From the IMG/VR virus record IMGVR_UViG_3300024270_000013, positions 48,575 to 112,574 of that record: a DNA stretch of 64,000 nt; one strand, 5' to 3'. The position numbers were made by a program, and so were the translations under genes. The notes below the pieces were generated by a model. That model was not told the DNA's origin and made no database searches. It saw only the letters and a program-made list of their open reading frames with translations. Numbering within the stretch: the first letter of the stretch is position 1; each line of letters opens with the position of its first letter. Origin of the DNA: a virus. Positions 1,297 to 54,162 of the stretch are shown piece by piece.

Positions 1297-1342
1297 AAAT
1301 AAATTTAAGGGGAGAGGTTTTAAATAACCTCTCCCCTTTTTG
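1297..1342 (+). terminator. Rho-independent terminator
   Basis: GGGGAGAGGTTTTAAATAACCTCTCCCC hairpin followed by a T-run (TTTTTGTCGTTTT). Confidence 0.8.
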
Positions 1343-1367: not shown

Positions 1368-2561
1368 ATGTTAGAAAGTTGGCAAAGTTTATTAAATACT
1401 CCTATTGATACGTCTGGCTATGATTAGGCCATGCTTCATTATAAAAATTTAAAAGAAAAAATGTTAGATTAGATTACTAATTCAGCAAAAGTTAAATTAA
1501 AAAATGAAGAATATAAAAAATTTATTAATGATATAGATATGTTAATTTTACAAAACGCAAGTGGATGGGGAGAAGGCTATGAAAATGCTCAACGCACATT
1601 AAATAATATTGAAGCAGCAGTAGTAAATTTAATTGAAAGTGGTTCAACTGCAGGAGCTAAAGAATTGTTGGAATCAATTCATAAACAAGTTTATGATAAA
1701 AAAGATAAAATTAAAAATGCCCAACAAACTTTTAAATAGAAATTAAATTTAAATAAAGATTTAATTTTTGCTGAATTAGGTATTAATAATCAATTTATTG
1801 AAAATATGCTTAGTGTTCAAGGAACTTCTGGAGATACTGCTGATATTGTTGCACAAGCATCTTCATATTTTATTCGTTATTTATATAGTAAATTATTTAA
1901 TGAGAAATCATTTGCTGAAGGCTCTCGTTTTAAATATGCGATGTCTTTAGGTGGTTATTATAAAGAGTTGCATGAGTATGAAGCTTTAGAAAAAGTATTA
2001 AATAATTTTTTAAATGTTTATCATACTGGTGGTACAAAAATGAGCGGACGCGATACTGAAATGGATATTTTTATTTCAACATTAGATAACTTAGAAAATG
2101 GATTAACGCAAAATGTAAAAGTTACTTAGATGATATCTTCTCTTTAGGAACCACCAGGGATTGAGGATATATTATTATCTTTGTCTCAATAGATTGATAG
2201 TTTTGGTGAGTAGGTAAAATCTAAAAGTCTAGGGAAAAGTGATACATTTGAAATTGGTAATAGAGCAGATTTGTATTCTGCATTTTTAAGCGAAGGTGGA
2301 AATGAATATAGTTCTTTATAGGCTTTACATTTCTTAGCACGTTTTAAAAATATTTTATTAAGTTTAGGTGTATCTAATGTTTTATTTAGTTCTAATAATA
2401 AAAGACAATGGATGGTTGATTTTATTGAAGATTTTAGAAGATAGTCATATTTACTGTCTTTTGTAAGACCAACAAATAAAGATAAATTAACTTCTAAAGT
2501 CGGATTAGAACAGTTATATACTTCATCCAGAAATTCTATTAGAAGTAGATTTTCAAATTAA
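1368..2561 (+). CDS. Hypothetical late protein of about 397 aa; possible tail assembly or structural protein. Read through about 9 in-frame TAG; ends at TAA 2559-2561.
   Basis: RBS GAGAGAAAGGAGA 5 nt before ATG 1368. ORF-track pieces 1539-1739 and 1806-2129 lie in the same frame and are separated only by TAG. Confidence 0.5.
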
Positions 2562-2564
2562 AAT

Positions 2565-2593
2565 TTGACAACTAAGAAATTTTTTGGTATAAT
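2565..2593 (+). promoter_or_regulatory. Perfect sigma-70 consensus promoter: TTGACA, 17 bp spacer, TATAAT.
   Basis: -35 TTGACA at 2565-2570; 17-bp spacer; -10 TATAAT at 2588-2593. About 30 nt upstream of RBS AAAGGAGGAG and ATG 2628. Confidence 0.7.
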
Positions 2594-2627: not shown

Positions 2628-3128
2628 ATGGCAAAAATTCCATTTTCCAAACTTGGTGTAAAAGTAAATTCTGAAATTGCTTTATTAACATGGGGGGAAT
2701 ATAATATTGAAATTCGTAAATATTTACCCATGGAAGAAAAGGCAAATTTGATTACAAATGTTTTAAATGCTTCTGCAGATGATAATAAATTTTATAATCC
2801 TTTGCGAGTAAAAGTATTTTTAACCTTGGAAGCTTTGTACGCATATACTAATTTAAGTTTTACTGAAAAAGCTAAAGAGAATTATTTAAAACTTTATGAT
2901 TCTGTTGTAAGTTCCGGTTTATTTGAACAGGTAATTAGTAATATTCCCAAGAGTGAATGGGATGATTTAGTATCTGCAATGTGGGAAACTATTTCTAAAG
3001 TTTATGAATATAATAATTCTGTATTGGGATTATTAGACAATATTTCTAATGATTATAGTAGCTTATCTTTGGAGGCTGCAGAAATTCAAAAAAAGTTAGC
3101 TGAAGGCAATGGTGTAGAATTTTTATAG
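2628..3128 (+). CDS. Putative tail assembly chaperone (166 aa), located directly upstream of the tape-measure gene.
   Basis: RBS AAAGGAGGAG 7 nt upstream of ATG. No internal TAG. The frame reaches TAG 3126-3128 and, if read through, adds 8 codons to TAA. Function is inferred from synteny only. Confidence 0.55.
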   Translation: MAKIPFSKLGVKVNSEIALLTWGEYNIEIRKYLPMEEKANLITNVLNASADDNKFYNPLRVKVFLTLEALYAYTNLSFTEKAKENYLKLYDSVVSSGLFEQVISNIPKSEWDDLVSAMWETISKVYEYNNSVLGLLDNISNDYSSLSLEAAEIQKKLAEGNGVEFL

Positions 3129-3199
3129 GATGTAATGAGTAAGCTGGGCTAATTAAGTTATTTTTATAGGAAAACTTTTCAAATTATCATAGGAATAGT

Positions 3200-3241
3200 C
3201 GAGGGATGAGATAAGTGATTATTCTCATCCCTCTTTTTTAT
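3200..3241 (+). terminator. Rho-independent terminator
   Basis: GAGGGATGAGATAAGTGATTATTCTCATCCCTC hairpin followed by TTTTTTATTTT. Confidence 0.75.
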
Positions 3242-3281
3242 TTTATAAAATAAAAATGGAGAGAAAGGAGATAGCTTTTAT

Positions 3282-6200
3282 ATGGCAAAGAATTTAAATG
3301 TTAGTTTATCTTTTTCTGCTGATTCATCAAAAGTTAGAGCTGAACTAAATAGTTTAAAAAAGTCTTTGAATGAATTATCTAACAGTATTGCTTTAAAGAT
3401 TCCGCATTTTGAATTTACTAAAGACCTTCAAGAAGCGAGTCGTGCAGCAGCTCAATTAAAAGTTCAATTAGATGCTGCAGTTAATACAAAAACTGGAAAC
3501 TTGGACTTGACTAAGTTCAGCGAGTCAATGAAAAAAAGTGGTATGTCTTTAGAGAAATACCAAAATCAATTATACTAGCTTGGACCTGCCGGTGAAAAAG
3601 CTTTTGCGGACTTAGCAAAGGCTATTACTATGGCGGATGTACCTTTGAGACGCAGTAGTAAATTATTAGATGAATTATGGACTACTATGAAAAATACTGC
3701 TAGATGGCAGCTAACTTCTAGCGCAATGCATGGATTCATGGGTGCAGTATCAAGCGCTTATGGGTATGCAAAAGATTTAAATGCATCTTTAAATGATATC
3801 AGAATTGTTACTGGCGCAAGTACTGAAAAGATGGCTGAGTTTGCGAAAGAGGCAAATAATGCCGCAAAAGCGCTAAGTACAACTACAACAGATTATACTA
3901 AAGCTTCTTTGATTTTCTATCAATAGGGTTTAAGTGATGAATAGGTTAAAGAGCGTACTGATGTTACTATAAAAATGGCTAATGCTGCGGGCGCAAGTGC
4001 CCAAGAAGTTTCTGATTAGTTAACCGCTGTTTGGAATAACTTTTATGATGGTACTAAATCTTTAGAGTATTATGCTGATGTCATGACTGCTCTCGGTGCG
4101 GCAACTGCTTCTAGTACTGATGAGATTGCTGGCGGATTAGAGAAATTTGCAGCCATCGGTAAAACAATTGGTTTAAGTTATGAATATGCTGCATCAGCCT
4201 TGGCAACAATTACTTCAAATACTCGCTAGAGTGAAGAAGTTGTTGGTACTGCCTTAAAGACTATTTTTGCTCGTATTCAAGGTTTGAATTTAGGTGAAAC
4301 TCTTGATGATGGAGTTACTTTAAATAAATATTCTCAAGCACTTGAAAAAGTTGGAATTAGTATATTTGATAGTACTGGAGAATTGAAGAATATGGATAAT
4401 ATTCTTGATGAAATGGCTGCAAAATGGGATGTCTTAAATAACTCTTAGCAAGTAGCATTGGCACAGACTGTTGCTGGTGTTCGTCAATATAACCAATTAA
4501 TTGCCCTAATGAATAACTGGGATAGTGGTGACAGTGATAGTATGGTCGCAAACTTAACTACTGCGACTAATTCTACAGGAACCTTACAGAATCAAGCAGA
4601 TATTTATGCTGAATCTTGGGAGGCTGCAAACAAGAGAGTAAAGGCTTCTACTGAAGCAGTTTATTCTGCTATTTTAAATGATGAGTTCTTTATTGATTTA
4701 ACTAATAGTTTTGCTGATCTTATAGATGGAGTTAAAACTTTTATTGATAGTTTAGGTGGTATTAAAGGTGTTTTATTAGCTATTGGTAGTATTGTAACAA
4801 GTGTTTTTTCTAAGCAAATTAGTTAGAGTATTCAAAATGCTGCTTTTAGTATTAAAGGATTTTTAAATCCAAAGGCTATTTTGGAGGCAGAAGTTAAATA
4901 GAAGGAAAAGGCCAATAAATTATTAGTTAGTGGTTTAAAGGATTAGGGAACTACTTCTAGTGGTTATAGCGCAGAAGCTTATAAAGCTTTAGGTGAAAAT
5001 CAATTAACTTATATTCAAAATATTGAAAGAATGAGTGAAGAAGAGTAGGCTATTAATTAGATTTTAATGGATAGAAATCGAGCCTTAGTAGATAATGCGA
5101 TTAAAGCTGGCGAAGAATTAGAAATAATTGAAGAAAAAATTGCTGCTGAAAGAAATATCCTTGTATTTTAGGCTCAAAAAGCTGGAAAAGGATCTTCAGA
5201 TCAAATCGCTCAAGTTCGAACATTGTCTAAACAGTATGAAGACTTATCAAAAAATGCTTCTAAATTCCAAGCAGTAGCAAATACTGCTTTTAAATCTATC
5301 GGCATGAATGAATAGGCTGAAGATGCTAAAGAATTAAAAAAGGAATTGTCAGAGACTGTTCAAGAAATGTTAAAACTAAAAAATGTTAATAAATTAACAG
5401 ATGCTCAAGGTATTGAAAAATTAAAAACTTCATTAAAAACGTTATTGCCGGAAGTTAATCTTACAACAACAGAAGTTAATGAATTATGGCAAACTATTAA
5501 AAATAGTGAAAATGTTTCTTTTGAATAGATTACTGCTGTATTTAATAGATTATCAACTGCAAGTACAGCTGCTGGAACAAGTATCCAATCAAAATTAAAA
5601 GTTGCGATGGAAGCTTGTGGTATGACAAGTGAAGAAGTAGAAAATGCTATTCGAGAGTATAATGCAGTTTTAGAATAGTTTGAAAATAAAAACGAAGGTG
5701 CTGAAGTTGCATTAAGAAAAGTAATTGTGGCGATGAAAGAGCATAATAAAAGCATGGAAGAGGCAAAATAGAAACCTATTCCAATGGCTGAAGCTTTTTC
5801 TAAAGCTGCCGGGGCAGCTATGGCATTGGGACAAGCCATTACTACTATTACTGGTATTATTGATGTATTTAATAATGAAGAAGCCACTACTAAAGATAAA
5901 ATTATGGCTTTAATATCTGGTATTGGAATGCTAACTGTTACTATAACATCTATTGTACCAGCATTTAGCACTGCAGAAGTTGCTGTGACTGCATTTGGAG
6001 TTACAACTTCTATCGCAATGTGGCAAATTACTTTAATTGCAATTGCAATTGCTGCTTTAATTGCTGGTATTGTTCTTTTAATTAATCATTTAAATGTCTA
6101 TGGACAGACGTTAGATAATGCTAATAAAAAATTAGAATAGGCTTCATAGGATGCTGAGAACGCAGCAAATGCTATTGATGATGCAAAGAATGCATATCAA

Positions 6201-9200
6201 GATTTAACCGATACAATTGAAGATTATCAAGGTGCAAAAGATGCCTTAGATACTTTAATAGAGGGTACAGAAGAGTTTAAAAATTAGTTAAAAGAGGCCA
6301 ATGACTATGCTCGTGAACTAATGGACACATATGGCATAAAAGGTTTATATAATGCTGAAAGCGGATTATGGGAAATCTCTGACGATGCATTAGAGAATGG
6401 AATGGCTGAATATAATAAAAAATTAGAACAAGCTTATATTGATAATGCAGTTGCTCAAAATGCACTCGCCGCGGCAAAAAATCATCAGGCTTTTGCTAAG
6501 TTAGCAGCTGAGGAAGATAAAACTTAGGGTGAGTTTTTATTAGAAAATATGGATAATCAATATTATAATAATAGTATTGGTACATATAGTGATCCTTCAG
6601 CAGCGGCTGGAGCTGCATTAGGTAATTTAATTTATTCTTGGATTGCAAGTTTTGGTGATATTCAATAGCAAGAAGATCAAAATAAATAGCAAATCGGAAT
6701 TTTAGATGAAGTTTTAAAATATTGGGATAGTTATGATGGTAATCTTAATAAGATTGTAAGAGAATTAAGTCTTGAAGGTATTGATTCTAAGGATGATTTA
6801 TTAAACGCCCTAGGAATGACTGAAGCTGCTTTATAGGACTTAATGAACACATTATCTTCAAATACATAGGCAATTCTTGAAAATAATAAGTTTATTATTA
6901 ATAATGCTTGGAAAGATAACGAAGTATATAGTGACTCAGAGCATAAAACAGCATTAAATAATTTAGCTGCTGCAGAAATGATGACTGAATCACAGCGTAT
7001 TCTTGACTAGTATGACAAATATGATAAGAAACAAAGGGAAAATTTATAGAAGTCGTACGCCAAAAAGAAAGATTTAACTTTTGTTTCTGAAAAAGATGGA
7101 ATTGTTGAATTTTTAGATACTGCTGGACAAACTATTAAATTCTCTAATGACAGTATTAAAGCTTTTATGGCTCAAGAGCAAGCTTTAGAAAATGTTGGCA
7201 TATCTTTAGAAACTTTTGCAAAGAACTTAGATAAATTGTCTGAAAAAAGTGAGTCTGGAGATTTGACTGGAGCCTTAGCATATTCTCAAGCTTCTGGAGG
7301 AGATATCTCAGATGTTTCAGTAGGATATGCAAACGGTGATATTCAAACTTTTAATACTGTTCAAGATTTACAAGATTATTTAGATATAGATGATAAAGCT
7401 TTTGAAGCTCTGTGGAAATCAAAGGGTTACATGAGTGCAGAGGCTTATTTAGAATCTTTCAATACACAAGTTTCTAGTTTTAAAGATCAAGTAGATAAGT
7501 TAGATATTGCAAAAGGCTTATCTGTTTTTGATGACTTAAGTTTAGGAATTGCTCAATCAATTGAGGCAGCTGCAGATAAAATGAATTTGGGCTCATTGGG
7601 ATTGCAAGCTGGTGATCAATATATAGAAGGCCTTAATTCTATGTTGTCATAGATTGATGAAGAGGATCAAATGACTGCATTAGAATAGTTATCAAGAATT
7701 GATTGGTCTTCTTGGGATGCTATGGAACAAGCTCAAACTATTTTAGCAAGTTTTGGTAAATAGATTAATACCACTGATTCTTACTGGAAAACTTTTATTG
7801 AAAATATGCGGATAGCTAATGGAGCTTTTCCAGATTTTACTAAATTGCAAACAAATTTACAAGAAATAAGTGCAATTTTAGGTTCTTTAGATTTCGGTGA
7901 TGTTATTAAAGACGAAGATTATGAGAAGTTAGTTGCTTATAATCAAGAGTGGGAAAAATTCTTTATTTTACAAGCTGATGGAACTCGCAAATTTATTGGC
8001 GATTCCGCAGAAATGTTAAATGCTACTAGAGAAAATATTGCGACTCAACGTGAAGATTTAGCAGTAAGAAAAGGATTGGTTGAGCAAGTTATTGATTCTG
8101 AAGCTGATTGGAAAATTTCTGCTACGTCCATTGATAAACAATATGGCGATGGTAAAGACGGTAAGCTAAGTAATCAGAATGGTATTAATCATGGCTACAA
8201 GAGCGGCGAAGATATGATTAATAACATTATGGCAGATCAAACTAAAAATTTAATTGATAATAATGCTGCAATAAAAGAAATTTTAGATAATAATAATTAT
8301 GATGAAACTACTATTAACACTATCCTTCAGGAAGCTCGAGATGGTAATAGAGAGCGTCTTGAGACAATGCTTACATATGTTGATGATTATATGACTCAAA
8401 ATTTAGAGACCTCTGAAGAATAGTTAAATGAAATGATGGCATCTACTGCTACTTCTATTTAGGATTTATAGAATTTATTTAGTCAAGGATTAATTGATGA
8501 AGCTGCTTATGATAAACAATTAACAGTTTTAGCTAATTAGGCTTCTTCTTTAGAAGAGTTAAAACAAATCCAATCTGTTGGTTTAAGTGAAGAGTCAGGA
8601 CTCGATACATATGAATATGGCCAAGCTCTTTTAACCTTAGCTGAGAATTATAGTAATTGCACAGAAGAAGCAGAAGAATATTCTAAAGCCTTACTAACTG
8701 GCAGTGAAACAGAGATTAAAGTTGCTCAAAGCGCATTAGAGGCTGCTGTTGAAGTGGGTGAATTGGCAGAAAAATATGATTTAAATGCAGAAGAATTAGA
8801 AGATTATACAAAAAGATTAAAAGATTTACATAAAGATTCTAATTTAAGTATTAAAGATGCTACAAAATTAGCAACTGCTAATATGCGTTTAGATCGAGGC
8901 GTAAGTAATTTAAATGATAATTTAAATGATTATAAAAAAGCCTTAAATACAACCAATAAAGGTAGCGCTGAGTGGTCTAATACTTTATCAAATTTAAAAA
9001 CAGATTTAGCTGATATAGTAAATGTCGCAGATGGGTCAATGTTAAGTGATCAATTTGCAGAAGATGCTTTAGCTTCTGAAGATTTAAAGTTGGCGCTTGA
9101 TGGCGATGTAGATGCGATTTTAAGATTAAGATTAGCCGCAGCAGATGATATTATTGCTAATTTAGATATTGAAGGCGATGAAAATATTCAAACAGTTCAA

Positions 9201-12200
9201 ACGTAGTGGGAATATTTAAAAGCAAATATGGCCGAAGGAGTATCTGCGGGTAATGTAGATCAATCTGCTTTAATTGATTCATTTAATGAAATGATTAAAG
9301 CTGGTAACATGACTAAAGAACAAATTGAAGCTGCATTAGCTGGATTAAATGTTAGTGCTAATGTTAAAACTAATTATGTTTAGCAAACTACCTCTGTCCC
9401 AACTACTATTACTGATGAATATTTAGAAAAACGGGGAGAACAAACTTATACAGTTGGCTATTAGGAAGATGGTACTCCAATTACAGCTCAATTACCAATG
9501 TATCGTAAATATACTTAGACTTATAGCGGAGAACCAGTAGAAGTTAATGGATGGGTTCCTCAATATACAATTGAAGGTACTGAAGGTGATGGAGATGTTA
9601 CTACAGCTTTTACTTCATTACCTGCTCCTCAAGTAAGTCAATCTTCTACCACAACTGGCAAATAGAGTGGAGGTTCTAAACCAAAGAAAACTTCAGAGGC
9701 TCGCCAAAAAAAATCTGATACGGTTGAACGCTATAAACCAGTAAATGATAAGCTTGATGATATGGCTGATGCTTTGGATGATGCATCTAAAGCGGCCGAT
9801 CGTTTATGGGGTACTGCTCGTATTAATCAAATGGAAAAGATTAATTCGATTTTAGAAGATGAGATTGAATTAATTAAAGAAAAAAGGTCTGAGGCTGAAG
9901 CTTATTTAAAGATTGATAGAGATGATTTAAATGCGGCTGCCGCTGATTTAGGGATTTCTTTCAATTATCAAGATGGCAATATTGCTAATTATGAGTCTCA
10001 AATGACAAAATTGTATAATGAGAGAGAAGCTCTATTAGACAGTTTTGGTGAAGAGATTGATGATACTGAACAAGAAACATTAGATGCTTTTGATAAGAAA
10101 TTAGATAGACTTAAAGAAGCTATTACTCAATACGATGAAACTCGTGAATTAATTGAAGATTTAGAGAATGAAGAATAGGATAAACGCAATGAAATTCAGG
10201 ATAATAATTTTGAAAAATTAAATTATGCTCTAGAAATTGAAATACAGTTTAATGAAGATGATTTGGCTATGATTGAATATCATATGAATAAAATGGAAGA
10301 CGATTTCTATTTAATGGCTGAAGCTTACGCTAAACTTAGTGAATCTAGTTCTATTTATGAAGAAAATCTTCAATTACAAAGACAATACGTTGCTGACTTA
10401 GAAGAAGCTTATAAAAATGGTGAAATCTCTCAAGCAGCTTATATTGAAGGATTGCAAAATGCAAAAGATGCCACTATGGAAAATGCTCAAGCACTAATCG
10501 ACTTAGACCGTCAAATGATAGAGTATTATGGAAATACTTTAGATGCGGCAAATGAAGAGCTAAGTAAATATACTGATAAAATGGAACATCTTACTTCTGT
10601 TTTAGATCATTATTCCAGTATTATGGATTTGTTAGGTAAGAAACAAGATTATGCAGTTATGGGTTCTATTCTAGAGGGATAGGCAAAAACTACTCGTAAT
10701 GAATTAGAAGTAGCACAGGCAACATATGCAATGTACGACGCTGAGGCAAAGCGATGGAAAGAGCAAATGGATAGCGCAATTGAGGGCTCTGATGCTTGGA
10801 AAGTATATAAGGCCAATTGGGAAGCTGCGCAAACTGCAGCTAATGATGCTCAAGATAATATGCTTTCAAAAACTGAAGCATGGATTGAAGCAATGAAAGC
10901 TGTTGTTGAAAATAATATGGCTGAGTTAAATCAAACTTTAGAAGAGACTTTAACAGGAGGCTCTGATTTTGATACGATGCTTGAATCTATGGAGCGTGCA
11001 AGCAGTCTTCAAGAAGAATATTTAACTACTACTAATTAGATTTATGAAACTAATAAATTAATGCGTACCGCACAACAAGAAATTGATAAAACTCAAAATA
11101 CTGTGGCAAAACGCAGATTAACTCAATTTATCCAAGAGACTGAGCAATTATAGAATCAAACTAAATTGAGTAATTATGAATTAGAAATTTAGTAGGCGAA
11201 ATATGATTTGCTTTTGGCAGAAATTGCTTTAGAAGAAGCTCAAAATGCAAAATCTACTGTTCGCCTATAGCGTGATGCTGAAGGTAATTTTGGTTACGTC
11301 TATACCGCAGATCAAGATAAAGTTGCTTAGGCTTAGCAAGAGCTTGAAGATGCTCAAAATTCACTATATAATATTGGACTAGAAGGTGCAAACGATTATA
11401 GCTAGAAATATGCTGAAACAATGCAAGAAATGTATGATACTTTAGCAGAATTGCAATAGGCATATTTAGAGGGTGAAATTGCTAACGAAGAGGAATATAA
11501 TGCTAAAATGGCTGCAGCAAAATAGCATTATTTTGACAAGCTAAAAGATTATTCTAGTCTTTATCAAGTGGCTTTAACCACTGATAGTAGAGTAATAAAT
11601 GATGCATGGAGTTCAGATTTTAATGATATGATTTACAAAACTGGTGAGTTATAGAATGCTGTAAATCAATATACTAAAGATAGTGCAAATACTTTATTGG
11701 GATGGTCAACAACTGTTAAAACTGCGCTAGATCAAACTGGTTTAGATAAAGTTGATAATCAAGTATTATCTATTACTATTGAAAGTGATAAATTAAAAGA
11801 GTCTTTAATTGGAAAAGATGGTAAAGGTGGAGTTGTTAATGCTATTTAGGCTGAAATTACTGAAGTTGGTAATTTAACAGGTGCTTATGCATTAGTTAGA
11901 GAACAAATTCAAGGATTAATTGGAGACCATGAACTATTAATAGGCGAAATTAATTAGACTCAAAAGGTTGAAGAAGAAGCTGCTAAACAAGCAAATGCAA
12001 ATGCTGAAAATGCTACTGACAATACTACTACAAATTAGCAAACACAAAACGATAGTGCTGAAAGTGAAAATAGTGCAGCTAGCTAGTATGATACAAGAAC
12101 TAAGGCAGGAGTCGCTTTAGCAATTATTAGAAATGCAACTGCGGCCGGTTGGGGTAACGGTTCTACGCGAAAAAAGAATCTTGAAGCTAAAGGATTTAGT

Positions 12201-12650
12201 TATAATGAAATTCAAGGTTTGGTAAATACTTATTTTGGTAATTCTTAGGCGTTAATTGCTGCTAATGGTATTAATTGGCCTAGCGATTATAGTAAGTATA
12301 TTTTCTCTCGTTTTAATACTGGTGGATATACTGGTTCTTGGGGATCTTATGGTAAACTTGGTATCTTAGATGAAAAAGAATTGGTTTTGAATTAGGGCGA
12401 TACAGCTAATTTCTTGGCTAGCATGGAAGTTTTAGAGCGTATTTTGTAGGTTATTGATTTACATAGCATGAATGCGCAACTGGGTGGATTATTATCTAGT
12501 CCTTCTTATGGAGGAAATAATAATGAAACTACAATTGAATAGAATGTTCATATCGAAGCTAGTTTCCCTGGCGTCAGTGATAGAAATGAAATCGAAGAGG
12601 CATTTAATAATTTAGTAAATCAAGCATCTCAATACGCGAATCGTAAATAA
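3282..12650 (+). CDS. Tail tape-measure protein, about 3122 aa. A single frame read through roughly 70 in-frame TAG; ends at TAA 12648-12650.
   Basis: Region 3630-4450 matches the TP901-type tape-measure core (…YYADVMTALGAATASSTDEIAGGLEKFAAIGKTIGLSYEYAASALATITSN…) and continues across TAGs. There is an internal hydrophobic segment at 5784-6140, extensive coiled-coil sequence, and the C-terminal motif FSRFNTGGYTGSWGSYGKLGILDEKELVLNQGDTANF. All ORF-track pieces are in frame 0 and separated only by TAG. The 11039-12650 stretch was read directly and contains only TAG interruptions. TAG TAG pairs give QQ in Q-rich coiled coils. Confidence 0.85.
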
Positions 12651-12652: not shown

Positions 12653-12695
12653 TTTAGGGTGGGTTATGAAAACATAACTCACCCTTTTTCTATTT
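12653..12695 (+). terminator. Rho-independent terminator after the tape-measure gene
   Basis: AGGGTGGGTTATGAAAACATAACTCACCCT hairpin followed by TTTTTC. Confidence 0.7.
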
Positions 12696-12711: not shown

Positions 12712-12740
12712 TTGACTTTTCTAAATTTTTATGATATAAT
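12712..12740 (+). promoter_or_regulatory. Near-consensus sigma-70 promoter: TTGACT, 17 bp spacer, TATAAT.
   Basis: -35 at 12712-12717 and -10 at 12735-12740. Followed by RBS GAGAGAAAGGAGA and ATG 12770. Confidence 0.65.
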
Positions 12741-12769: not shown

Positions 12770-15700
12770 ATGGACAATAATCATACTGATTATTTAGAGC
12801 AGTTGTTTTAGGGTGTAGATATCCTTATTGATCGAAAGCTCAAAGATATATCATTTGATACAACTATTATTTGTACTATTGTTGATGCAAGTGATAGTAA
12901 AAATGGTAGATATCAAGTAACTGATGGTACCGTTCGTTTTGAAGCATATAGTGATAATGATAAATACAAAGTGAATGATTAGGTTCGTGTTTCTATTATT
13001 AAGGGTGATCTTACAAAAAAGAAATTTATTGTTGGTAAATATGTAACTGATAATTACACTTAGCCAATTACATATGTATCACCTTTAAATACAGTAGTTA
13101 ATATTACAGGTAATTTAATTCCAAATGATAAATAGGGAATGAGCATTATTGCAAATGGAAAAATTACTGAAGATGATCCTGACCCAAAACATCATTTAAT
13201 TTGTTGTATTCCATTAGCTGATGGTGCTTTTGCTGATCTTCAAACTAATGGTATTTATAATACAATTACTTTAAAAGCAGATTTTAAAACTTTTTTACAT
13301 AATTATAATGTAAAATCTGGTACATATGGTTTATAGTTAGATTTAGTTGTAAAACCAAACAGAAATAGTACACGCAAACTTTTAAAAACTGCTTATTTAG
13401 AAAGTTCTGAAATGTTTGGTAATCCATATGCATTTTCTATTGCTACTTAGTAGACAAAAATTTTTGATATTGGAACAGTTGGTATTATTACAGATATTTT
13501 ACTGACATTATATCAAGATGGTAATTTTTTTGATATTAATGGAAATAAAATTGAACCTGCTTTAATTGGCAATATTACTGTAGAAAATATTGAGCTAGGA
13601 TTTGGTAGCGATTTAGTTGCAGTTGGTGATAACACTTTAAAAATTTATACTGAAAGTGATCCACAATATAAATATTATGGTCATAATCCATATCCCTATG
13701 ATAAAAAATTAGGCTATCCTAATGAAATTAATAAAGTTACTAATGAAAAGCGATTGGGTTTATTGTGGTATAATAAAAATGATTTAAATGAATATTTAGG
13801 TTTTAGTGACGGATTATATGACCCTGATTATGATGAAATAGAATATTTGAATTTAGCAAAAGAAGATACTAGATTAACTGCTTAGATGGGTAGAGAAGGT
13901 ATCCCGACAGACCGAGATAGTTTAAATCTTGCTGCTAATCTAGAAGAAGCTATTCCTTTAATTACAAAGGCAATGAAAGTAGTCACTTAGGATTTAACAA
14001 CTACTTTAAGAGCTTTGCGTTCTTAGGTAGAAGGAGTTACTACTTTTACAAATGAAATTGATAAATTAATTGCGCTTGCGGCCGCCGGAGGGTCCGATTC
14101 TTTAGCTGCCCTTGCCGCAGATATTGATGACAATCTTGAGCTTTTGGAAGCACAATATAAGGGTGTATTAGCACATGGTGTAAAAACTCAAAATCTTGAA
14201 TGGGCTAGCGATAGTGAAAAAATAAATAACTGGAATAGTAAATGGGATATTCACTATGGAAATAATATAAAGATTGCTTTTAAAACTGTGCGACAAAAGA
14301 TTGAAGCGTTATTAAATAATGTCATTAAACCAGGAGTGTATGGAGATGCTGCCGCATATAGTGGATATGCAGGAGTTTATGACACTTATAAAATACGATT
14401 GGAACGAGTGCTAAATACTTTGGAAGAGTATTTAGATCCAGAAAGTAAATATGATTTTCCAATTGATGTTTTTAATGGTGTTGATTATAATACTTTACAA
14501 TCTTACAAAAATACAAAAACTCAATGGAAATCTTATATTAAGAAAGATTTAAGTGCTTATGATAATAAGTATTGTATTTATTGGTTTAGATATGATAAAG
14601 ATTATGTTAATAATGAAGTTCATTAGTTTTTATCTAACGGTTGGCGTAGATTAACTGAACTTCCTCGCAATATAGGTGTTCCTGGTAAAGGTGAAAAAAT
14701 TGATGGTAAAACTTATAATGCAATTAAACTCGCTCCAGGAGAGGGATTAATTGATGTTATAATGAGATTTAATGAATCTGAAGAAAAATACAAAGCAGTA
14801 TTATTTTATAATCATGCAATGTATGAAAGCGATGAGTTAATTTTTACTAACGAAGATCGGATACCCGAAACCGCAAATATTGAAACAGGAGATTTATTAA
14901 TCTTTGAACATATTGATAAATCTCGCAATGATTATCAATGCTATAATTTAACTAATTATTTAATGGATAGCGCTGACGCAAGCCATTTACGACAAATTCG
15001 AGTTAAATATGATGGTTTATTATATGGTGATGAAATCCTTGCTAGCGGAGGTATTTATTGGTACGTTCCTATTACTTCAACTATGTTAACTGTTAATATT
15101 GATGAGCTTATCGCTCATGGATTTGTCACTGATTATGAAATGAATCCAAAACCACCTTATTCAAAAGCTGGATATATTTGTTTTTATAAATAGATTTAGG
15201 GAGAAAAAGATGAGTCTGGTAAATGGACTTTCTTGGATGGTAATGGATTTGATACAAGAGATTTTTGGTATAAAATTAAACCGTACTATGATGCTTCCGC
15301 AAGTATTAATTCTATTAAATGTGAATTTAGAGCTGCTACTGATAATGATATTGTAAGTGGCGAAGAATTTTTTAATTTTGGAGTAATAGGTAGCAATGGT
15401 ACTAAATATACTTTATCTATTAATCCTGCTACAAATTAGGTAGCAACTTTACCCACTAAAAATTTAATTTTAGATGTATCTTTAAGAGATTTTAATAATG
15501 AAGAAATTGATCTCAGTATTGGAGCTAATGGAGTCGGATAGACTTCTGAATTTACTTCCTCTTGGTTGTTTAAATTAAATGGCAATGCTCCTACAAAAAT
15601 TGAAGATGGAAATAAAGTTATTGGTTTAACTGCTTTTGGTGGAAGTTGTGGTATTGTTAAGGCAAGTACGAAATTTCAGTTAAGTGCGGCCGGGGCTGCT

Positions 15701-18700
15701 GAGGAGACTGCAGGAACAGTGAAATATCGTACGGTAACACTAGAGACAGTGCGTGCAATACCAGCGGCTGCAGGAGATTATTATATTTCTGGACCAACTT
15801 CTATTGTCTATAATAGTTTTGGTACTATTGATAATAGAAGTATGTTTGATAATCCTTATAAGTTATTTGCAATGAAAAAAATAACTTTAGGATCTAAGAC
15901 TTATAATCCCAATGATCAAATTGATGTTAATTGGGATATTGAATATTATAACGCAAATGGTGTACAATTTACAGATGAAAACAATAAAGAGTATTAGTTT
16001 TATCGTAATTATATGCCAATTATTAATGATGCGGGTGGTTTAACTCCAGCTTCATTATATTTGGATAATATTGATTGTTATGCTGTTGTAAAAGCATATT
16101 CTGCAATTACAAATGATTTATTATGGTCTCAGCCTATTGTAATTACATAGAATCGTTTTGCATCTTCTGTACTCAATGATTGGGACGGTAGCTTGACAAT
16201 TGACAAAAAAAATGGTACAATATTATCATCAATGGTAGGTGCTGGACGGAAAACTGAAAATAATACATTTCAAGGTGTGTTGATGGGTGATATTGGCGGT
16301 AATGCTGGTATTGATCTTGACGCAAAAACTGGATATGGTGTATATGGTTTTAATGATGGTGCCTAGAGTTTTGGATTTAATATTGATGGCACTGCTTTTA
16401 TTGGTAAAGCAGGTCGTGGTCGTATTAAATTCGATGGCAATAAAGGTGCGATTACAAGTGCTTCTTATGAATAGACTCGGTTAGATCGTAGTGAACAAGA
16501 TGGCGCTATTATTTATGATATTCCCGCAGGCATGAAAATTGATTTGAATGACGGATATATTGATATTCGTGGTGCAAGTTTAGGTTCTGATGGGAATAGA
16601 TATAAGTATTATGAAACTGTTTACAAAGAAGATGGCACGACAGAAGCTATTAATAATACTATTGCTAGTAGATATGCAAATCATATTTTATTAAGTGCTA
16701 CTGGAACGAACGGATCTACTAATACTAATTAGTATTTTTTAATTGAAGTTCCTTGGAATAAGGATTCTAGTGGTATTGAAGGTGCTTGGCAATTAAAACC
16801 ATTGATTTCTATTGGATTAAATAATTATTTCTTATAGTCTCGAAATTATCGGTCTGGTACCTATTGGATTACTGACGGAGTTGCTAATGATCGAGGTGAA
16901 GGTACTTATTTTGATTTAGTTAAAGGCTATATTGATGCTTTTAATTTTAAATTAACTTCTAAAAATGTAATGATTGATTCTAGTGATGGAGCTACTGCAT
17001 TTTTAGTTGTAAAAAATAATACGAGTGGAAATAATTTAATTTATATTGGTTCTGATGGATATTATTTAAAATCTGATGATTTTGATCCAATCGGAGCAAA
17101 TGGCGTACCCGGTGCTGGTATGAAAATTGATTTAAGTACTGGTCACATTCATGCATTTGATTTTGAGTTACGTTCAAGTAATATTATTATTGATGCATAT
17201 GATAATGATGGAGCAGGCTTAATTACTTTTACTGGAGATAGTGGTACTAATACTTTATCCATTACGAATAATCCTAATGGAATACCAATTGAAATTGGTA
17301 ATGCTTTTAAAATTAAATGGGATGGTAGTATTTAGGGAGGATCGACATCTCCCTGGTCTATTGATGCGGCTGGTAATGCTAAATTTACTAATGCTGATTT
17401 ATCTGGTAATATAAATATTAGTGGTAATCTTAATGTTAGTGGCACTGGTTCTATCGGCAATTGGAAAGTTACTTCAGATGGTAATTTATAGAGCGCTAAT
17501 AATAGCGTTATTTTAAATGGTAGTACTGGAGCTATTAGTGGTTCAGCCATTTCTGGTGGTACTATTTCTGGTACTAATATTTCAGGTTCTAGTATCAAAG
17601 CAGGAGAGACATTTAATGTTACTTCAGGAGGCAAATTAACTGCTACTAATGCAGAATTAACTTCTTTAACGGTTCATGGTACATTAGCTGTTAAAACTAC
17701 AGGTAAATTTGAATTAAGTGGTGAAGGTTGGATTTCTGGTCATTTAAAAATAGGTTAGAGTAGTTATAATAATGATTATCATTTATATGTAAATGGAAAA
17801 TCTTATTTAACTGGACACGTAGGAATTGGTATTGCTCCAAATGATACATGGGATTTACGAGTTAATGGAAAAACTCGAATTGGTGGTCATACTGGTATTG
17901 GTACTGATCCAGTTGATGATTATGTATTAAAAGTGAGTGGAGACACTTATATTACAGGAAATTTAGGAATTGGAATTGAGCCAGATAATAATTATGATTT
18001 AAGAGTTAATGGTAAAAGCTATTTTTCAGGCACTTTATATTTTTCTGATGCAGATACCTATCTTTTGGTAAACAAAGATTCTGGTGGCGGAATGTGGTTT
18101 TATGGTTCGACAATTACTTTGGCTACAAATAAAGTACAATTGGGAGTAGGTAATACAGAATGTTCTACTCTTATTTATCACTATTTAGAAATTCCAGAAG
18201 ATACTCATATCCGTGTGGGTAATGTAACATATACATTGCCAAATTATATTGCTGAGTTTGGCGGAGGATTTACTTTAATTGGAGATAATAAAGTAGCAAT
18301 TGCAAATAGTGCTTTAACTTTAGCCAATGGTTCTGGTACAAAATATAGTGTTGGCAGTACTAATTGGCCGGTATACTTTTCTGATGGTATACCTGTTGCA
18401 ATTTCTGTAGGATCTGCAGGTCAAGTGTTAGCAACTAATAGTGATGCTACTGGATTAGAGTGGAAAACAATATCATAGGGATCCACTTATCCATATGCTC
18501 CAACATCTAAAGGATCTAGTGGTTACGCTTGGATAGGTAATGGTACTGGTGCCAATGACAGTGGGCCATCTTGGCAATCTACTTATCATAGACATTCTAT
18601 TACTTTATATAAAAGTAGTACTGGGATATTATATGCTGCGTAGAATAGTAGTGGCACTCTCGAACAGGTTACTATTTATACTGGTTATTCTTATGTATAA
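12770..18700 (+). CDS. Large tail/baseplate-associated fibre protein, about 1976 aa. Read through many TAG; ends at TAA 18698-18700.
   Basis: All ORF-track pieces (13139, 14144, 14762, 15233, 15566, 16532, 16970, 17933) are in frame 2, and the gaps read directly contain only TAG. The C-terminal half carries Gly-rich beta-helix/fibre-like repeats (…GNLGIGIEPDNNYDLRVNGKSYFSG… / …GHTGIGTDPVDDYVLKVSGDTYITG… / …GHVGIGIAPNDTWDLRVNGKT…). Confidence 0.65.
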
Positions 18701-18751: not shown

Positions 18752-19120
18752 ATGAAAATGACAAATAATGAAATTTATACTTATACTCGTCAGTTAATGG
18801 ATGCATTCCAGGATGGCGAACAGAAGTTACCTATTAAGATTAACTTCTATCTTCAGAAGAATAAGAATACTCTTCTGAGTTTGGCACAGGATATTGAAAA
18901 GGCTCGTTTAGAAATTGCTCAGACTTATGGTGTATTAGATGAGTCTGGCGAGCAATATCAGATTCCTAATGATAAGCTTGCTGAGGCTAGCAAGGAATTA
19001 GAGGATTTGTTTAATTTAGAGCAGGATGTTAATATTTCTAAGATTAGTGTCGATGCTTTAAGTGATGATTTGACTCTGACTACTGCTCAAATGGAAGCTT
19101 TAATGTTTATGATTGACTAA
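18752..19120 (+). CDS. Hypothetical protein (122 aa), no TAG.
   Basis: RBS GAGATAAAGGAGA; clean ORF ending at TAA, with a terminator downstream. Confidence 0.55.
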   Translation: MKMTNNEIYTYTRQLMDAFQDGEQKLPIKINFYLQKNKNTLLSLAQDIEKARLEIAQTYGVLDESGEQYQIPNDKLAEASKELEDLFNLEQDVNISKISVDALSDDLTLTTAQMEALMFMID

Positions 19121-28269: not shown

Positions 28270-30636
28270 ATGGCTAATTTGAATTTTAAATGGGGTTCTC
28301 ATGAAAATCTAGTCAAAATGACTACTTCTGAAGTTGGTGCAATTTATTTCACTAAAGATGAGGGCTCTTTATATTTAGGCGTAGACGCAGAAAAAGCTCC
28401 TAAGAGAATTCAAGGTGTTGTTCAGTTCTATGAAAGTACTACTGCTTTTGCTGAAGCAACTAAGCCACCTTATTCTACTGATGTAATTTATTACATTGCG
28501 GATCAGGGTGCTTTAATCCGTTGGGATGATTCTACAGATAAGTTCTTGGTTATTAACGTTACTGCAGCAGAATTTACTGCTAAATCTGCTGAATTGTCTG
28601 GCAACATTACTGCTAATGCTAATGCTATTAGTGGTTTGCGCGGCGAAGTTGGTACCAAGGAAACTGACGAAAAAGCTGCTTTTGTATGGTTGAGAGATTT
28701 GCAAGATGCTGTCGATGCATTAAATGAATTAACAGGTCTAGGAAGTGGCGAAGGCGCCTCTTTGACTGAGCAGTTAAATACTTTAGTTGGCCGCTTAGAT
28801 GATGAAGGTGGTTTGGTTGACCGTATTGAAGCTTTAGAGTCTTGGAAAACTGATGCTGCTACTGATATCTTAGATCATGAGGGTCGTGTTACTACATTAG
28901 AAACCAACATGGGCACTCGTGCTGAAGGTGAGGCTGCTGTTTATCCTTGGTTAAATAGCTTACAGGATAGTGTAGACGACCATGAGACTCGTTTGGACGC
29001 TATTGATGGTGAAAACGGTAGCATCGCTACTGCTAATAGTCGCATTGATGGCTTGGCTTCTAGAACTACTGCAGTAGAAAATAAAGCAAACACTAATGCT
29101 GAGGATATTGTTAAGTTAAAGGCTGCTGATACCACTACTAATGCAGCTATTGAGGCTTTGCAGGGAGAAGATGGCTTGGCTGGCGTAAAGAGTCGTTTGA
29201 CTCCTTTGGAAACTGCCAAGACTGATCATGAAACTAGAATTCAAAAGTTAGAGAATGCTGATACCGAGATTAAAGCTGATGTAAAAGCAATTAATGATGA
29301 ATTACCAACTATTAGACAAGATATTTTAAATGCTGCCAATTCTGCAGCTGCTGCTAATGGTGCGATTGGTGATGCCAATACCGCAGGTACAGTAAAATAT
29401 GATATTGCTCAATTACAAGCAAAAGACACTTTAGTTGATGCTGATATCGAAGCTTTAGAAGGCCGAGTACAAGCTAATGAAAATGCTATTGGTAATGATG
29501 AAAAAGCTGATAGTATTAAGGGCCGTTTGAAGGCTACTGAGACTGTTGCAAATCAAGCTAAGGCTGATATTGTTACTATTAATAACACTTTAAGCGGCAA
29601 GGCTGATCAAAGTACTGTTAATGGTTTGAGTACTAAGGTTGGTAATTTAGAAACTGCCGTTGGTGCTCCAAAGTCTGGAAGCACTGCTGCTTCTGGTTTA
29701 TATGCAGAGACTGCTAACAATGCTGCTGCTATTGATTTAATTAATCAAAATATTGGCACTAAGGGCACTGCTGGTTCTACTGTTTATGGTGCTATTAAAG
29801 AAGTCGATGAAAAGACTCTTGCAAATGCTAATGAGATTAGCGCAGTAAGTGGTGTTGCTGATGGTGCTGCTGCTAAAGCCGCTGCCAATGAGGGCGCAAT
29901 CAATGATATCAATGATGAAATTGATGCTTTGAAGAAAGTGGATTCTGATCAGGCTACTACTAATGCTAATGTAGAATCTCGTTTAAGTACTGCTGAGGGT
30001 ACTATTAAGACTCATGGTACTGATATTCTTGCTTTGCAGAATGCTGCTTCTACTTATGCTAAGCAGGCTGATCTTGATAAAGAAATTGAAGATCGCGAAG
30101 CTGCTGATACTCAATTAAGAACTGATTTAAATGCTGAAATTGAAAGAAAAATTAATGCAGCTAATTCTTTAACTTATATTGATGGTATTTCTACTGCTGA
30201 TGAGTGGGATGCTGTAAAAGTAAAAGATGCTCATATTGGTGACACTTATGTTGTTGCTGAATCTAATTTAGCTTTAAATCTGGATTTGGACAATAATTCT
30301 AGTACTGCTGCAGTAAAGTGCTATGCTGGTGATTTGTTAATTGCCACTGCTAAAGAAGACGCTGTTGAAACTGAGGGTGTTTTGGCCGCTGCTGATATTG
30401 AGTGGGTCCATGTTCAGTCTGGTTATAAGGCAGAATTGCAGGGTAAGTTGAGTGTAGCTGATGTTGCTGGTACAGCTTCTGCCAATATTAACTTAACTTC
30501 TTTGAATGGTAATGGTACTGCAGGTGACTTAGGTCAGATTACTGTGACTTCTGCTTCTTCTAATTTGACTATTGAGGCTTCTGGCAACACTATGACCATT
30601 AATATGGTTTGGGATAGTTTTGATCCAGCTACTTAA
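28270..30636 (+). CDS. Tail-fibre protein (788 aa) with a fibre N-terminal motif and a long Ala-rich coiled-coil shaft. No TAG.
   Basis: Intact 788-aa ORF. N-terminus …NFKWGS…VGAIYFTKDEGSLYLGV. RBS AAAAGGAGAG. Terminator downstream. Confidence 0.8.
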   Translation: MANLNFKWGSHENLVKMTTSEVGAIYFTKDEGSLYLGVDAEKAPKRIQGVVQFYESTTAFAEATKPPYSTDVIYYIADQGALIRWDDSTDKFLVINVTAAEFTAKSAELSGNITANANAISGLRGEVGTKETDEKAAFVWLRDLQDAVDALNELTGLGSGEGASLTEQLNTLVGRLDDEGGLVDRIEALESWKTDAATDILDHEGRVTTLETNMGTRAEGEAAVYPWLNSLQDSVDDHETRLDAIDGENGSIATANSRIDGLASRTTAVENKANTNAEDIVKLKAADTTTNAAIEALQGEDGLAGVKSRLTPLETAKTDHETRIQKLENADTEIKADVKAINDELPTIRQDILNAANSAAAANGAIGDANTAGTVKYDIAQLQAKDTLVDADIEALEGRVQANENAIGNDEKADSIKGRLKATETVANQAKADIVTINNTLSGKADQSTVNGLSTKVGNLETAVGAPKSGSTAASGLYAETANNAAAIDLINQNIGTKGTAGSTVYGAIKEVDEKTLANANEISAVSGVADGAAAKAAANEGAINDINDEIDALKKVDSDQATTNANVESRLSTAEGTIKTHGTDILALQNAASTYAKQADLDKEIEDREAADTQLRTDLNAEIERKINAANSLTYIDGISTADEWDAVKVKDAHIGDTYVVAESNLALNLDLDNNSSTAAVKCYAGDLLIATAKEDAVETEGVLAAADIEWVHVQSGYKAELQGKLSVADVAGTASANINLTSLNGNGTAGDLGQITVTSASSNLTIEASGNTMTINMVWDSFDPAT

Positions 30637-30748: not shown

Positions 30749-30786
30749 ACAAAAAAAATTATTTGAGAGAAAGGAGAACACTTCAT

Positions 30787-48290: not shown

Positions 48291-48338
48291 TTAGGGTCTG
48301 GGAGGTAATTGAATACATTGTTCATAATAAATCTTTGC

Positions 48339-48731: not shown

Positions 48732-48797
48732 AAAAAACTTTATCCCCCTTTCTACTTCTCTAACGATACTAAAGAAGCAGATAGGGGGATTATCTCA

Positions 48798-49824: not shown

Positions 49825-49826
49825 AT

Positions 49827-50071: not shown

Positions 50072-50072
50072 A

Positions 50073-50342: not shown

Positions 50343-50343
50343 C

Positions 50344-51299: not shown

Positions 51300-51338
51300 A
51301 TTATAACCCTCCTTTATCTCATTTATATAAATATTATA

Positions 51339-51821: not shown

Positions 51822-51870
51822 ACGAACTTACTCCTTTCTAATAGCGTAGCTAATTCGTAGTTAGCTACAA

Positions 51871-54075: not shown

Positions 54076-54162
54076 ACTAATTACCTCCATTATAAAATAC
54101 TATATCTTGTGGAGAGCGTAAAAACTCTCTACAAAATATAGCGTTTTATCTTGATCTATTAA

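Follow-up and report, generated by a model that had tools for sequence, protein, structure and literature searches.

How much of the DNA between positions 3282 and 12650 of this window (the whole stretch of 64,000 nucleotides of viral DNA that was analyzed) is a single gene, what does it encode, and how long a tail would its product measure? It is very probable that the region constitutes a single genuine gene, that its product is a tape-measure protein of the TP901/PhageMin_Tail type, that the gene belongs to a gut-metagenome phage in which TAG is read as glutamine, and that it lies in an SPbeta-like module for a non-contractile tail. The features that carry this reading are collected in Table 1.

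With regard to the frame, a count of stop codons from position 3282 gives 59 TAG, no TGA, and a single TAA, which is the terminal one (12648-12650); each of the remaining five frames of 3282-12650 contains 172-483 stop codons. The gene is 9,369 nt long, i.e., 3,122 codons plus the stop, and the protein has 3,122 aa. The G+C content of the DNA in question is 32%, and at this composition a run of 3,122 codons with neither TAA nor TGA cannot be attributed to chance. A previous examination of the letters alone, hereafter the sequence-only reading, had proposed a single 9.4-kb frame with TAG readthrough and a product of about 3120 aa, and this is confirmed as one gene; the overlooked internal TAA or TGA that it had named as a refutation occurs nowhere in the frame. 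The frame is opened by a TAA at 3246-3248 and its first ATG is at 3282; this start is right, because the N-terminus MAKNLNV... is common to the homologues of the protein. Neither self-BLASTP nor Tandem Repeats Finder detected internal repeats in the protein, and therefore its length does not derive from a recent tandem duplication.

How are the TAG codons read? All 42 predicted genes of the window stop at TAA (34) or TGA (8) and none at TAG; the window genes contain 182 TAG codons, spread over 28 of the 42, and the dense gene packing of the window is obtained only with TAG as a sense codon. The tail tube gene has no TAG, and its seven glutamine codons are all CAG. In the homologues of the tape-measure protein, glutamine makes up 32.5% of the residues at the 59 TAG columns and 32.1% at the CAA/CAG columns, compared with 6.2% overall. 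A locus 80% identical to the query (L002) has TAG at 31 of the query TAG sites and CAA or CAG at 12, with the same pattern in the reciprocal comparison, and the interchange of TAG with CAA/CAG is observed in two related loci; with a 47%-identical homologue, only 2 TAG sites are shared. P0111, a homologue that uses the standard code and shares the gene order, has an uninterrupted ORF of 3,109 aa that translates under table 11 without internal stops, and it carries glutamine at 11 of 48 TAG sites against a background of 6.1% (p = 1e-4). Including TAG, the query has 195 glutamines and its standard-code relatives have 180-219, so that the glutamine content normal for the family is reached only when TAG is counted. 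On these sequence comparisons, TAG in the tape-measure gene is shown here to behave as a glutamine codon.

Or, is TAG a genuine stop at some of the 59 sites, with several shorter products or a decayed pseudogene as the result? In public assemblies annotated with the standard code, this DNA is indeed cut into pieces of 39-205 aa, and tRNA scans, which covered the 64-kb window and four related loci, detected no tRNA, suppressor or other, the window being a minor part of a genome that public contigs extend to at least 181 kb. Against these two points stand the long frame free of TAA and TGA, TAG sites that are not conserved and exchange with CAA/CAG, the glutamines at the TAG columns of the homologues, the single ORF of the standard-code relative, and the fact that TAG terminates no gene in the window. 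In addition, the N-terminal core known from single-chain tape-measure proteins and their C-terminal motif occupy opposite ends of the frame, and signals for a restart (Shine-Dalgarno plus start codon) follow 2 of 59 TAG codons versus 4 of 136 CAA/CAG codons, so that there is no excess after TAG. Several products or a pseudogene are thus contradicted by both the homologue comparisons and the frame, and this explanation, to which we give next to no credence, was rejected.

Table 1. Features of the tape-measure gene and its surroundings (positions of the window)
Feature	Coordinates	Strand	Remarks
Tail tube (major tail) protein, 331 aa	292..1287	+	phrog_2729, E 1e-54; PF27173 YomU_Tube on identical public gene
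Terminator-like hairpin (13 bp) and T-run, directly 3' of tube gene	1307..1338	+	-23.8 kcal/mol, z -5.9
Conserved 397-aa protein, role unassigned, between tube and chaperone-like genes	1368..2561	+	9 TAG codons
Perfect sigma-70-type site (TTGACA, 17 nt, TATAAT, with TG), 5' of chaperone-like gene	2565..2593	+	Consensus match only
Candidate tail assembly chaperone, 174 aa, YomO-like	2628..3152	+	phrog_30570, E 2e-13
Terminator-like hairpin (3201-3233) and U-run (3234-3246), between chaperone-like and tape-measure genes	3201..3246	+	-21.6 kcal/mol, z -4.6
Shine-Dalgarno GGAGAGAAAGGAG	3258..3270	+	11 nt 5' of tape-measure ATG; kept in homologous loci
Tape-measure protein gene	3282..12650	+	3,122 codons and TAA; 59 in-frame TAG read as Gln
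TP901-type tape-measure core, residues 152-494	3735..4763	+	TIGR01760, PF10145; 61-79% identity to query, 120 homologues
First hydrophobic segment, residues 490-510	4749..4811	+	Kyte-Doolittle 19-residue window maximum 1.81
Second and third hydrophobic segments, residues 873-896 and 904-941	5898..6104	+	Kyte-Doolittle maxima 2.08 and 3.09
Conserved non-helical insert, residues 2028-2097	9363..9572	+	Modeled long beta-hairpin; pLDDT 55-70, low confidence
Long helical region, residues 2152-2906	9735..11999	+	Model; 41-77% identity across homologues
Single CW_7 peptidoglycan-binding repeat, residues 2957-2983	12150..12230	+	PF08230, 32.4 bits vs cutoff 25
Conserved C-terminal motif, residues 3011-3122 (TGGYTGxWG...KELVLN...ASQYANRK)	12312..12647	+	BLASTP
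Terminator-like hairpin (13 bp) and T-run, 6 nt past tape-measure stop	12656..12685	+	-19.7 kcal/mol, z -5.4
Near-consensus sigma-70-type site (11/12 positions, with TG), 5' of next gene	12712..12740	+	Consensus match only
Next tail-module gene, 1,976-aa protein, 26 TAG codons	12770..18700	+	Position and size conserved in homologous loci

The identity of the protein is given by its domains, for which the sequence-only reading had listed a TP901-type core, a hydrophobic segment, long coiled-coil stretches and a conserved C-terminal motif, and had recognized no lytic transglycosylase or peptidase domain. The core exceeds both curated thresholds, with 118.6 bits for TIGR01760 (cutoff 28.8; residues 152-494) and 98.2 bits for PF10145 (cutoff 33.2; residues 192-399), and tape-measure PHROGs are matched down to E 2e-59. 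Three hydrophobic segments were found by Kyte-Doolittle analysis where one had been claimed, and the latter two are candidate membrane-inserting helices. No transglycosylase or peptidase domain was found in the protein by Pfam, NCBIfam or PHROGs, in agreement with the claim, and the same Pfam scan does detect SLT and M23 domains in YomI of SPbeta and an SLT domain in the tape-measure protein of Lactococcus phage phiL47. The C-terminal motif is likewise borne out: in BLASTP it aligns with the C-terminal ends of known tape-measure proteins, that of Enterococcus phage VRE9_4 at E 5e-17 and, at about 2e-7, those of phiL47 and SPbeta (YomI), it has 23 invariant columns in 24 homologues, and it has a weak profile match to residues 722-764 of lambda gpH (E 0.27).

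As for the fold, structure models were made on homologue segments 99% and 90.6% identical to the query, both low in confidence, with mean pLDDT values of 55.7 and 63.0. For the 90.6%-identical segment (P0001), which covers the C-terminal 1,188 aa, the AlphaFold2 model contains 66% helix, about 8% strand and 26% coil at this low confidence, and helix reaches 85% over residues 2152-2906; the C-terminal 40% of the protein is thus predicted by the model to be mostly helical, and the claimed coiled coils correspond to long helical stretches at that same confidence. Also in the low-confidence model, the beta-hairpin insert is followed by a disordered linker rich in S, T, G and K (residues 2101-2148), and the helical region that comes next holds the most conserved stretch together with a small beta-hairpin, VRLQRDxEGNFGYVYT (residues 2659-2675). 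A Foldseek search of the PDB with the C-terminal model, the one with a pLDDT of 63, gave no significant match, and a PDB profile search gave only weak hits, to a Cpl-7 module and to lambda gpH.

What the sequence-only reading missed is the CW_7 repeat just N-terminal of the C-terminal motif. CW_7 (PF08230, Cpl-7 type) has a three-helix fold and usually occurs in tandem copies; the tape-measure protein has one copy, which scores 38.3 bits in the 99%-identical segment (P0002). The stretch is modeled as helical with a pLDDT of 70-89; it resembles 4cvd with a target TM of 0.64 and an rmsd of 2.6 A at a non-significant E of 9.5 (Foldseek), and it weakly matches the Cpl-7 wall-binding module 5i8l at E 0.018 in the profile search. 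The module that occupies this slot varies among homologues, with CW_7, an SH3-like module and LysM among the occupants, and such a swappable wall-binding slot ahead of the C-terminal motif is a better lead than the length of the protein.

The gene order around the tape-measure gene (the tube gene first, then the genes for the unassigned, chaperone-like and tape-measure proteins, and last those for the large distal tail proteins) recurs in homologous loci with the Pfam families YomW, YomV, YomU_Tube and YomO, the Yom/Yon names being precomputed Pfam hits on public contigs. The 174-aa protein is, from its position, a candidate chaperone; its identical public copy has a weak match to PF27287 YomO, and its PHROG also occurs 5' of the tape-measure gene in VRE9_4. 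The 397-aa and 1,976-aa proteins have no match in the PHROGs or in a Pfam set that lacks the recent Yom/Yon families; homologous loci have a gene for 326-442 aa in the position of the former, and counterparts of 1,917-1,976 aa for the latter. From the gene order and the family names, the tail module is in all likelihood SPbeta-like and non-contractile, of the siphovirus type.

The window starts only about 290 nt 5' of the tube gene, so that a sheath gene could lie further upstream and the protein might measure the inner tube of a contractile, myovirus-type tail. Yet in longer homologous loci the genes directly upstream are YonB, YomW, YomV and YomU_Tube, with no sheath family recorded there, and all cultured relatives, as recognized through the tape-measure protein and the neighboring PHROGs, are SPbeta-like, Enterococcus or Lactococcus 949-group phages, phiL47 among them being described as a siphovirus. 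On these grounds the myovirus tail, a very improbable alternative, was rejected.

How long, then, would the siphovirus-type tail be, and how exceptional is the gene? In phiL47, a tape-measure protein of 3,275 aa goes with a tail of 480 nm by EM, i.e., 0.147 nm per residue, and this calibration gives about 458 nm for 3,122 aa. By analogy, a tail of about 460 nm, plausibly anywhere from 400-490 nm, is predicted, with roughly 110 tube rings, and the 450-470 nm of the sequence-only reading agrees with this prediction, which provides a testable tail length for an uncultured gut phage lineage. Its claim of exceptional length, at the extreme end of known tailed phages, is not supported. Tape-measure proteins are longer in cultured phages of the Lactococcus 949 group, where tails measure 480-500 nm (LW81, 3,213 aa; phiL47, 3,275 aa), and for the Thermus phages P23-45 and P74-26 a protein of 5,002 aa is reported together with a tail that approaches 1 um. 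Moreover, the C-terminal half of the query is matched by 1,971 metagenomic clusters (50% identity) at E <= 1e-30, and the best 120 database homologues all have 2,699-3,782 aa, with a median of 3,182 aa. The gene is long rather than exceptional, and tape-measure proteins of about 3,000 residues are a large, length-conserved family and not an oddity.

Perhaps not all of the protein is a ruler. Some 10-15% of the chain appears non-helical in the low-confidence models (the beta-hairpin, the linkers and the CW_7 region), and therefore 0.15 nm per residue may overestimate the tail length. If the hairpin of residues 2028-2097, the linkers, the CW_7 region and the hydrophobic block contributed less than 0.15 nm per residue, the tail would be clearly shorter than 460 nm. 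The strand and coil contents of the modeled C-terminal 1,188 residues speak for this possibility, as does the Thermus P23-45 protein, the N-terminal part of which is reportedly an RNA polymerase and not a ruler. On the other hand, phiL47 carries SLT and LysM domains that are not ruler and still has 480 nm for 3,275 aa, and the total length is kept at 2.7-3.8 thousand aa despite identities of 35-50%. A substantially shorter tail is rather unlikely, and we retain the estimate of about 460 nm.

With regard to relatives, a megablast search of window positions 1-25000 against GenBank phages returned one match of 77 bp only, and therefore there is no close cultured relative; a scan of species genomes yielded nothing but metagenome bins from diverse taxa (Gastranaerophilaceae, Muribaculaceae, Mollicutes, Bacteroides, Clostridia). 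Among known systems, VRE9_4 and its EF1/H1-type relatives (2,673 aa, phrog_34405) are the best cultured match at both ends: the start of the VRE9_4 protein aligns with residues 84-505 at 30% identity, and its very end with the last 112 residues at 37%. VRE9_4 also lacks a lytic domain and has the neighboring PHROGs 4051, 2729 (tube) and 30570, but its protein is about 450 residues shorter and without CW_7, the small genes that separate the tube gene from the tape-measure gene are in a different order, and the code is standard, TAG being the stop codon of its tape-measure gene. The 949 group (Audreyjarvisvirus; phiL47 orf166, LW81) is of the same length class and has a homologous PhageMin_Tail core at 25-26% identity, whereas the central 2,400 residues are without detectable similarity. 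In phiL47, the core begins at about residue 600-700 instead of about 150, the homologous C-terminal motif is preceded by LysM instead of CW_7, and there is an SLT lytic domain that the query lacks; the group uses the standard code, unlike the query with TAG as glutamine, and has an integrase-like gene directly 5' of the tape-measure gene, which differs from the arrangement here. SPbeta YomI (2,285 aa) shares the core and the C-terminal motif, the Yom/Yon Pfam families of the tail module are a further common feature, and a stem-loop is annotated just 5' of the YomI gene; YomI is nevertheless 840 residues shorter, is read with the standard code, and has the SLT and Peptidase_M23 domains that are absent here.

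Structural and tape-measure genes broken under the standard code have been reported for gut phages that read TAG as glutamine, including phAss-1 of the proposed Phassvirus (PMC10607447; bioRxiv 10.1101/2021.08.26.457843), and the late structural genes are the focus of recoding both in such phages and here. The phAss-1 core is 34% identical to the query, with the similarity confined to the core, and its genome of about 136 kb has three suppressor tRNA-CUA genes, compared with at least 181 kb and none in the 64 kb examined here. In the Thermus phages, too, the length of a siphovirus tail, a very long one, is reported to be set by a giant tape-measure protein, though by a much longer one with a virion RNA polymerase as its N-terminal part.

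How might such a protein work? By analogy with the models for lambda, TP901-1 and T5, the chaperone would keep several copies, few in number, of this largely helical protein in an extended state, their C-termini would dock on the tail-tip initiator, and tube hexamers would polymerize around them until the N-terminal end, so that the length of the protein would set that of the tail. During infection, the protein would be expelled, with the CW_7 repeat near the tip-proximal C-terminus contacting peptidoglycan and the hydrophobic segments (490-510 and 873-941) inserting in the membrane and lining a DNA channel. As assembly would begin at the C-terminus, termination at even one of the 59 TAG codons would leave the chain inert, and therefore tails may form only once TAG suppression is efficient. 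A further, tentative and rather doubtful proposal is that the tape-measure gene is the strictest checkpoint of the code switch, given its 59 TAG codons, C-terminus-first assembly and conserved attenuating terminator, and that this SPbeta-like recoded lineage (at least 181 kb, about 460 nm) is an undescribed, very abundant clade with the longest tails in the gut. If true, tail formation would be possible only after near-complete TAG suppression.

A correct annotation of the gene is also of practical value: the standard code breaks it into dozens of fragments and hides a structural protein of 3,122 residues. An identical 3,122-aa sequence, translated with TAG as glutamine, is already present among the public ENA predictions.

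Another point concerns the terminator-like hairpin at 3201..3246, the position of which is kept in four homologous loci (L002, L008, L001 and L007) while the stem sequences differ. A conserved terminator 5' of the tape-measure gene is, like the wall-binding slot, a better lead than the length of the protein.

The proposal, made from the sequence alone, that the tape-measure gene is a single frame encoding about 3120 aa is correct in coordinates and in substance. From its start at 3282 the frame contains 59 TAG, no TGA, and a single TAA, the terminal codon (12648-12650), so that no TAA or TGA splits it internally; the remaining five frames of the same stretch contain 172-483 stop codons apiece. 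The preceding in-frame TAA (3246-3248) opens the frame, ATG 3282 is the first start, and a Shine-Dalgarno sequence, GGAGAGAAAGGAG at 3258-3270, lies 11 nt upstream of it. With TAG taken as an amino acid, the product has 3,122 residues. Stop usage agrees across the window: the 42 predicted genes end in TAA (34) or TGA (8) and never in TAG, and they pack end to end only with TAG as sense.

Which amino acid does TAG encode, and does any of these codons end a product? Four concordant lines of evidence (alignment columns, codon interchange, a standard-code relative, and glutamine content) identify one gene in which TAG is Gln. When the protein is aligned with its best 120 database homologues, Gln makes up 32.5% of homologue cells in the TAG columns (n = 59), 32.1% in the CAA/CAG columns and 6.2% in all columns. 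As recoding affects many of these homologues too, with TAG rendered as Gln by the database, codons were also compared directly. At the TAG sites of the query, the related locus L002 (80% identical) shares TAG at 31 and carries CAA/CAG at 12, the more distant L001 (47% identical) has CAA/CAG at 14, and the reciprocal comparison gives the same pattern. The standard-code homologue P0111, whose gene order matches that of the query locus, is 3,109 aa long without an internal stop of any kind in table 11 translation, and has Gln at 11 of the 48 aligned TAG sites (background 6.1%, p = 1e-4). The total of 195 Gln (136 CAA/CAG and 59 TAG) reaches the family norm, 180-219 in standard-code relatives, only because the TAG codons are counted. 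Restart signals (Shine-Dalgarno plus start codon) follow 2/59 TAG and 4/136 ordinary Gln codons, with no excess after TAG. Read-through to one product, as the sequence-only reading had assumed, is thus borne out.

Public ENA predictions already include the identical protein of 3,122 residues, Gln standing at its TAG positions, on five contigs, the longest being 181 kb; the JGI standard-code predictions of the same DNA are pieces of 39-205 aa. Pieces of exactly this protein lie on 18-21 JGI contigs, of which four are 0.2-1 Mb long and the longest is 406 kb. Among species-representative genomes, tape-measure relatives are confined to taxonomically varied metagenome bins (L010-L017); the two best bins are Gastranaerophilaceae, at most a weak hint of the host.

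TAG usage differs gene by gene in the window. Its share of Gln codons is 34% in the tail module and 7.5% in the minus-strand replication genes; in most tail genes it is 30-58%, with CAG nearly absent. The tube gene has 7 CAG, 0 CAA and 0 TAG, and the genes at 18752-19120, 28270-30636 and 43595-44302 are likewise CAG-rich and TAG-free.

As for the identity of the protein, the TP901-type core is confirmed by TIGR01760 (tape_meas_TP901; residues 152-494, 118.6 bits, cutoff 28.8) and, in a Pfam scan of the recoded translation, by PF10145 (residues 192-399, 98.2 bits); eight tape-measure PHROGs match as well (best E 2e-59). Where a hydrophobic segment had been claimed, three are present (residues 490-510, 873-896, and 904-941). 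In Enterococcus phage VRE9_4 the tape-measure protein is an uninterrupted chain of 2,673 aa, whose start aligns with residues 84-505 and whose extreme end aligns with 3011-3122; thus, the ends of the 9.4-kb frame are those of a known single-chain protein class. The conserved C-terminal motif recognized earlier is this last stretch, to which SPbeta YomI and Lactococcus phiL47 align as well. No internal repeats were found in the protein. For the homologue P0001, the C-terminal 1,188 residues (90.6% identical to the query) were modelled with AlphaFold2; the model is 66% helix, rising to 85% in the part matching residues 2152-2906, with a small conserved hairpin within the motif VRLQRDxEGNFGYVYT; its mean pLDDT of 55.7 is low, so the model is support and not proof. 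The same model predicts that a conserved non-helical insert in mid-protein forms a very long beta-hairpin, adjoined on its C-terminal side by an S/T/G/K-rich disordered linker.

Pfam, NCBIfam and PHROGs gave no match to a transglycosylase or peptidase domain, in agreement with the sequence-only reading. The negative holds because the same Pfam scan does detect SLT in both YomI and the phiL47 protein, and Peptidase_M23 in YomI, domains that the query lacks. One peptidoglycan-binding CW_7 repeat (PF08230; residues 2957-2983, 32.4 bits, cutoff 25) had been overlooked. It lies in a variable slot before the C-terminal motif, which holds CW_7 in 6 of 24 sampled homologues, SH3-like sequence in some, and different sequences or nothing in the remainder; in phiL47 the slot carries LysM instead. 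To judge from these sequences, the slot may be a swappable cell-wall-binding module beside the tail-tip end of the protein.

How long would the tail be, and how unusual? At the textbook value of 0.15 nm per residue, a chain of 3,122 residues would span 468 nm. The phiL47 tail measures 480 nm by EM and that of phage 949 500 nm (PMC3888941). The phiL47 protein has 3,275 aa, hence 0.147 nm per residue and ∼458 nm here, and the earlier prediction of 450-470 nm stands; once non-helical parts are taken into account, a reasonable interval is 400-490 nm. At an assumed tube rise of ∼4 nm per ring, this corresponds to roughly 110 rings. The claim of exceptional length, at the extreme end of tailed phages, does not survive. 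LW81 (3,213 aa) and phiL47 have longer proteins; a 440-nm tail is reported for Bacillus phage Tsamsa, and a 5,002-aa protein with a tail of nearly 1 μm for Thermus phages P23-45 and P74-26. The best 120 homologues, many of them recoded, span 2,699-3,782 aa (median 3,182 aa). A profile of the C-terminal half matches 1,971 clusters at 50% identity with E ≤ 1e-30, and among its best 150 matches 127 of the 144 newly returned sequences have at least 2,500 aa. The protein is thus typical of a large family in which length is conserved; the gene is real, correctly read, and of an ordinary, known kind.

In longer homologous loci, YonB, YomW and YomV lie further upstream, with no sheath family recorded there. 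Among cultured phages, the tape-measure protein finds matches in SPbeta-like Bacillus phages, ∼140 kb Enterococcus phages, the Lactococcus 949-group, and phAss-1, a TAG-recoded gut phage. A non-contractile tail is therefore most likely, as judged from gene order.

Features of the window
Feature	Position	Strand or place	Remarks
Tail tube protein gene	292-1287	upstream of tape-measure gene	phrog_2729; identical public gene carries YomU_Tube
Conserved 397-aa protein		between tube and YomO-like genes	
YomO-like protein, 174 aa		between 397-aa and tape-measure genes	phrog_30570; likely chaperone
Terminator-like hairpin + U-run	3201-3246	between chaperone-like and tape-measure genes	putative attenuator
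Mid-protein insert	9363-9572	residues 2028-2097	predicted beta-hairpin
Variable slot	12150-12311	residues 2957-3010	with matching homologue region
1,976-aa protein	12770-18700	immediately after tape-measure gene	26 TAG codons
Long Ala/Thr/Ser-rich fibre-like proteins	25413-48229		several
2,233-aa protein	30763-37464	among the fibre-like proteins	
Replication/nucleotide module	48291-63973	minus	
NrdD	51871-54090	minus	
DNA polymerase, 1,297 aa	54954-58847	minus	
RecJ-like exonuclease	61836-63575	minus	

Protein identity, single chain, Gln at TAG, layout of parts and gene order are shown by the data; for assembly, a pathway can be proposed by analogy with lambda, TP901-1 and T5. A few extended copies would dock on the tip complex via their C-termini, and the tube would polymerise along them up to the N-terminal end; upon infection the protein would exit the tube, and the wall-binding repeat and hydrophobic helices would then work at the cell envelope. 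A chain ended at any TAG would lack the C-terminus and start no tail. As a per-codon read-through of 0.95 over 59 TAG would leave <5% full-length chains, efficient suppression would be required.

The hairpin preceding the tape-measure gene has counterparts at the same position in L002 (2199-2328), L008 (7886-8012), L001 (9878-10000) and L007 (1312-1446), with wholly different stem sequences and compensatory changes. A conserved AUAGGAAUAGUCG motif lies on its upstream side, and an A/U palindrome and the Shine-Dalgarno sequence on its downstream side; the hairpin may set tape-measure protein stoichiometry. Strong terminators are predicted after the tube and tape-measure genes, and near-consensus promoters before the chaperone-like gene and the gene following the tape-measure gene, a layout that would fit much less tape-measure protein being made than tube protein.

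The 1,976-aa protein, without a PHROG or Pfam match, is kept in size (1,917-1,976 aa) and position across related loci and takes the place that small distal-tail proteins have in SPbeta. PHROGs without an assigned function (phrog_14959, E 4e-61) are the only matches to the 2,233-aa protein. The replication module has a G+C of ∼0.40 versus 0.32, and the sign of the GC skew flips close to 48 kb, at the strand switch.
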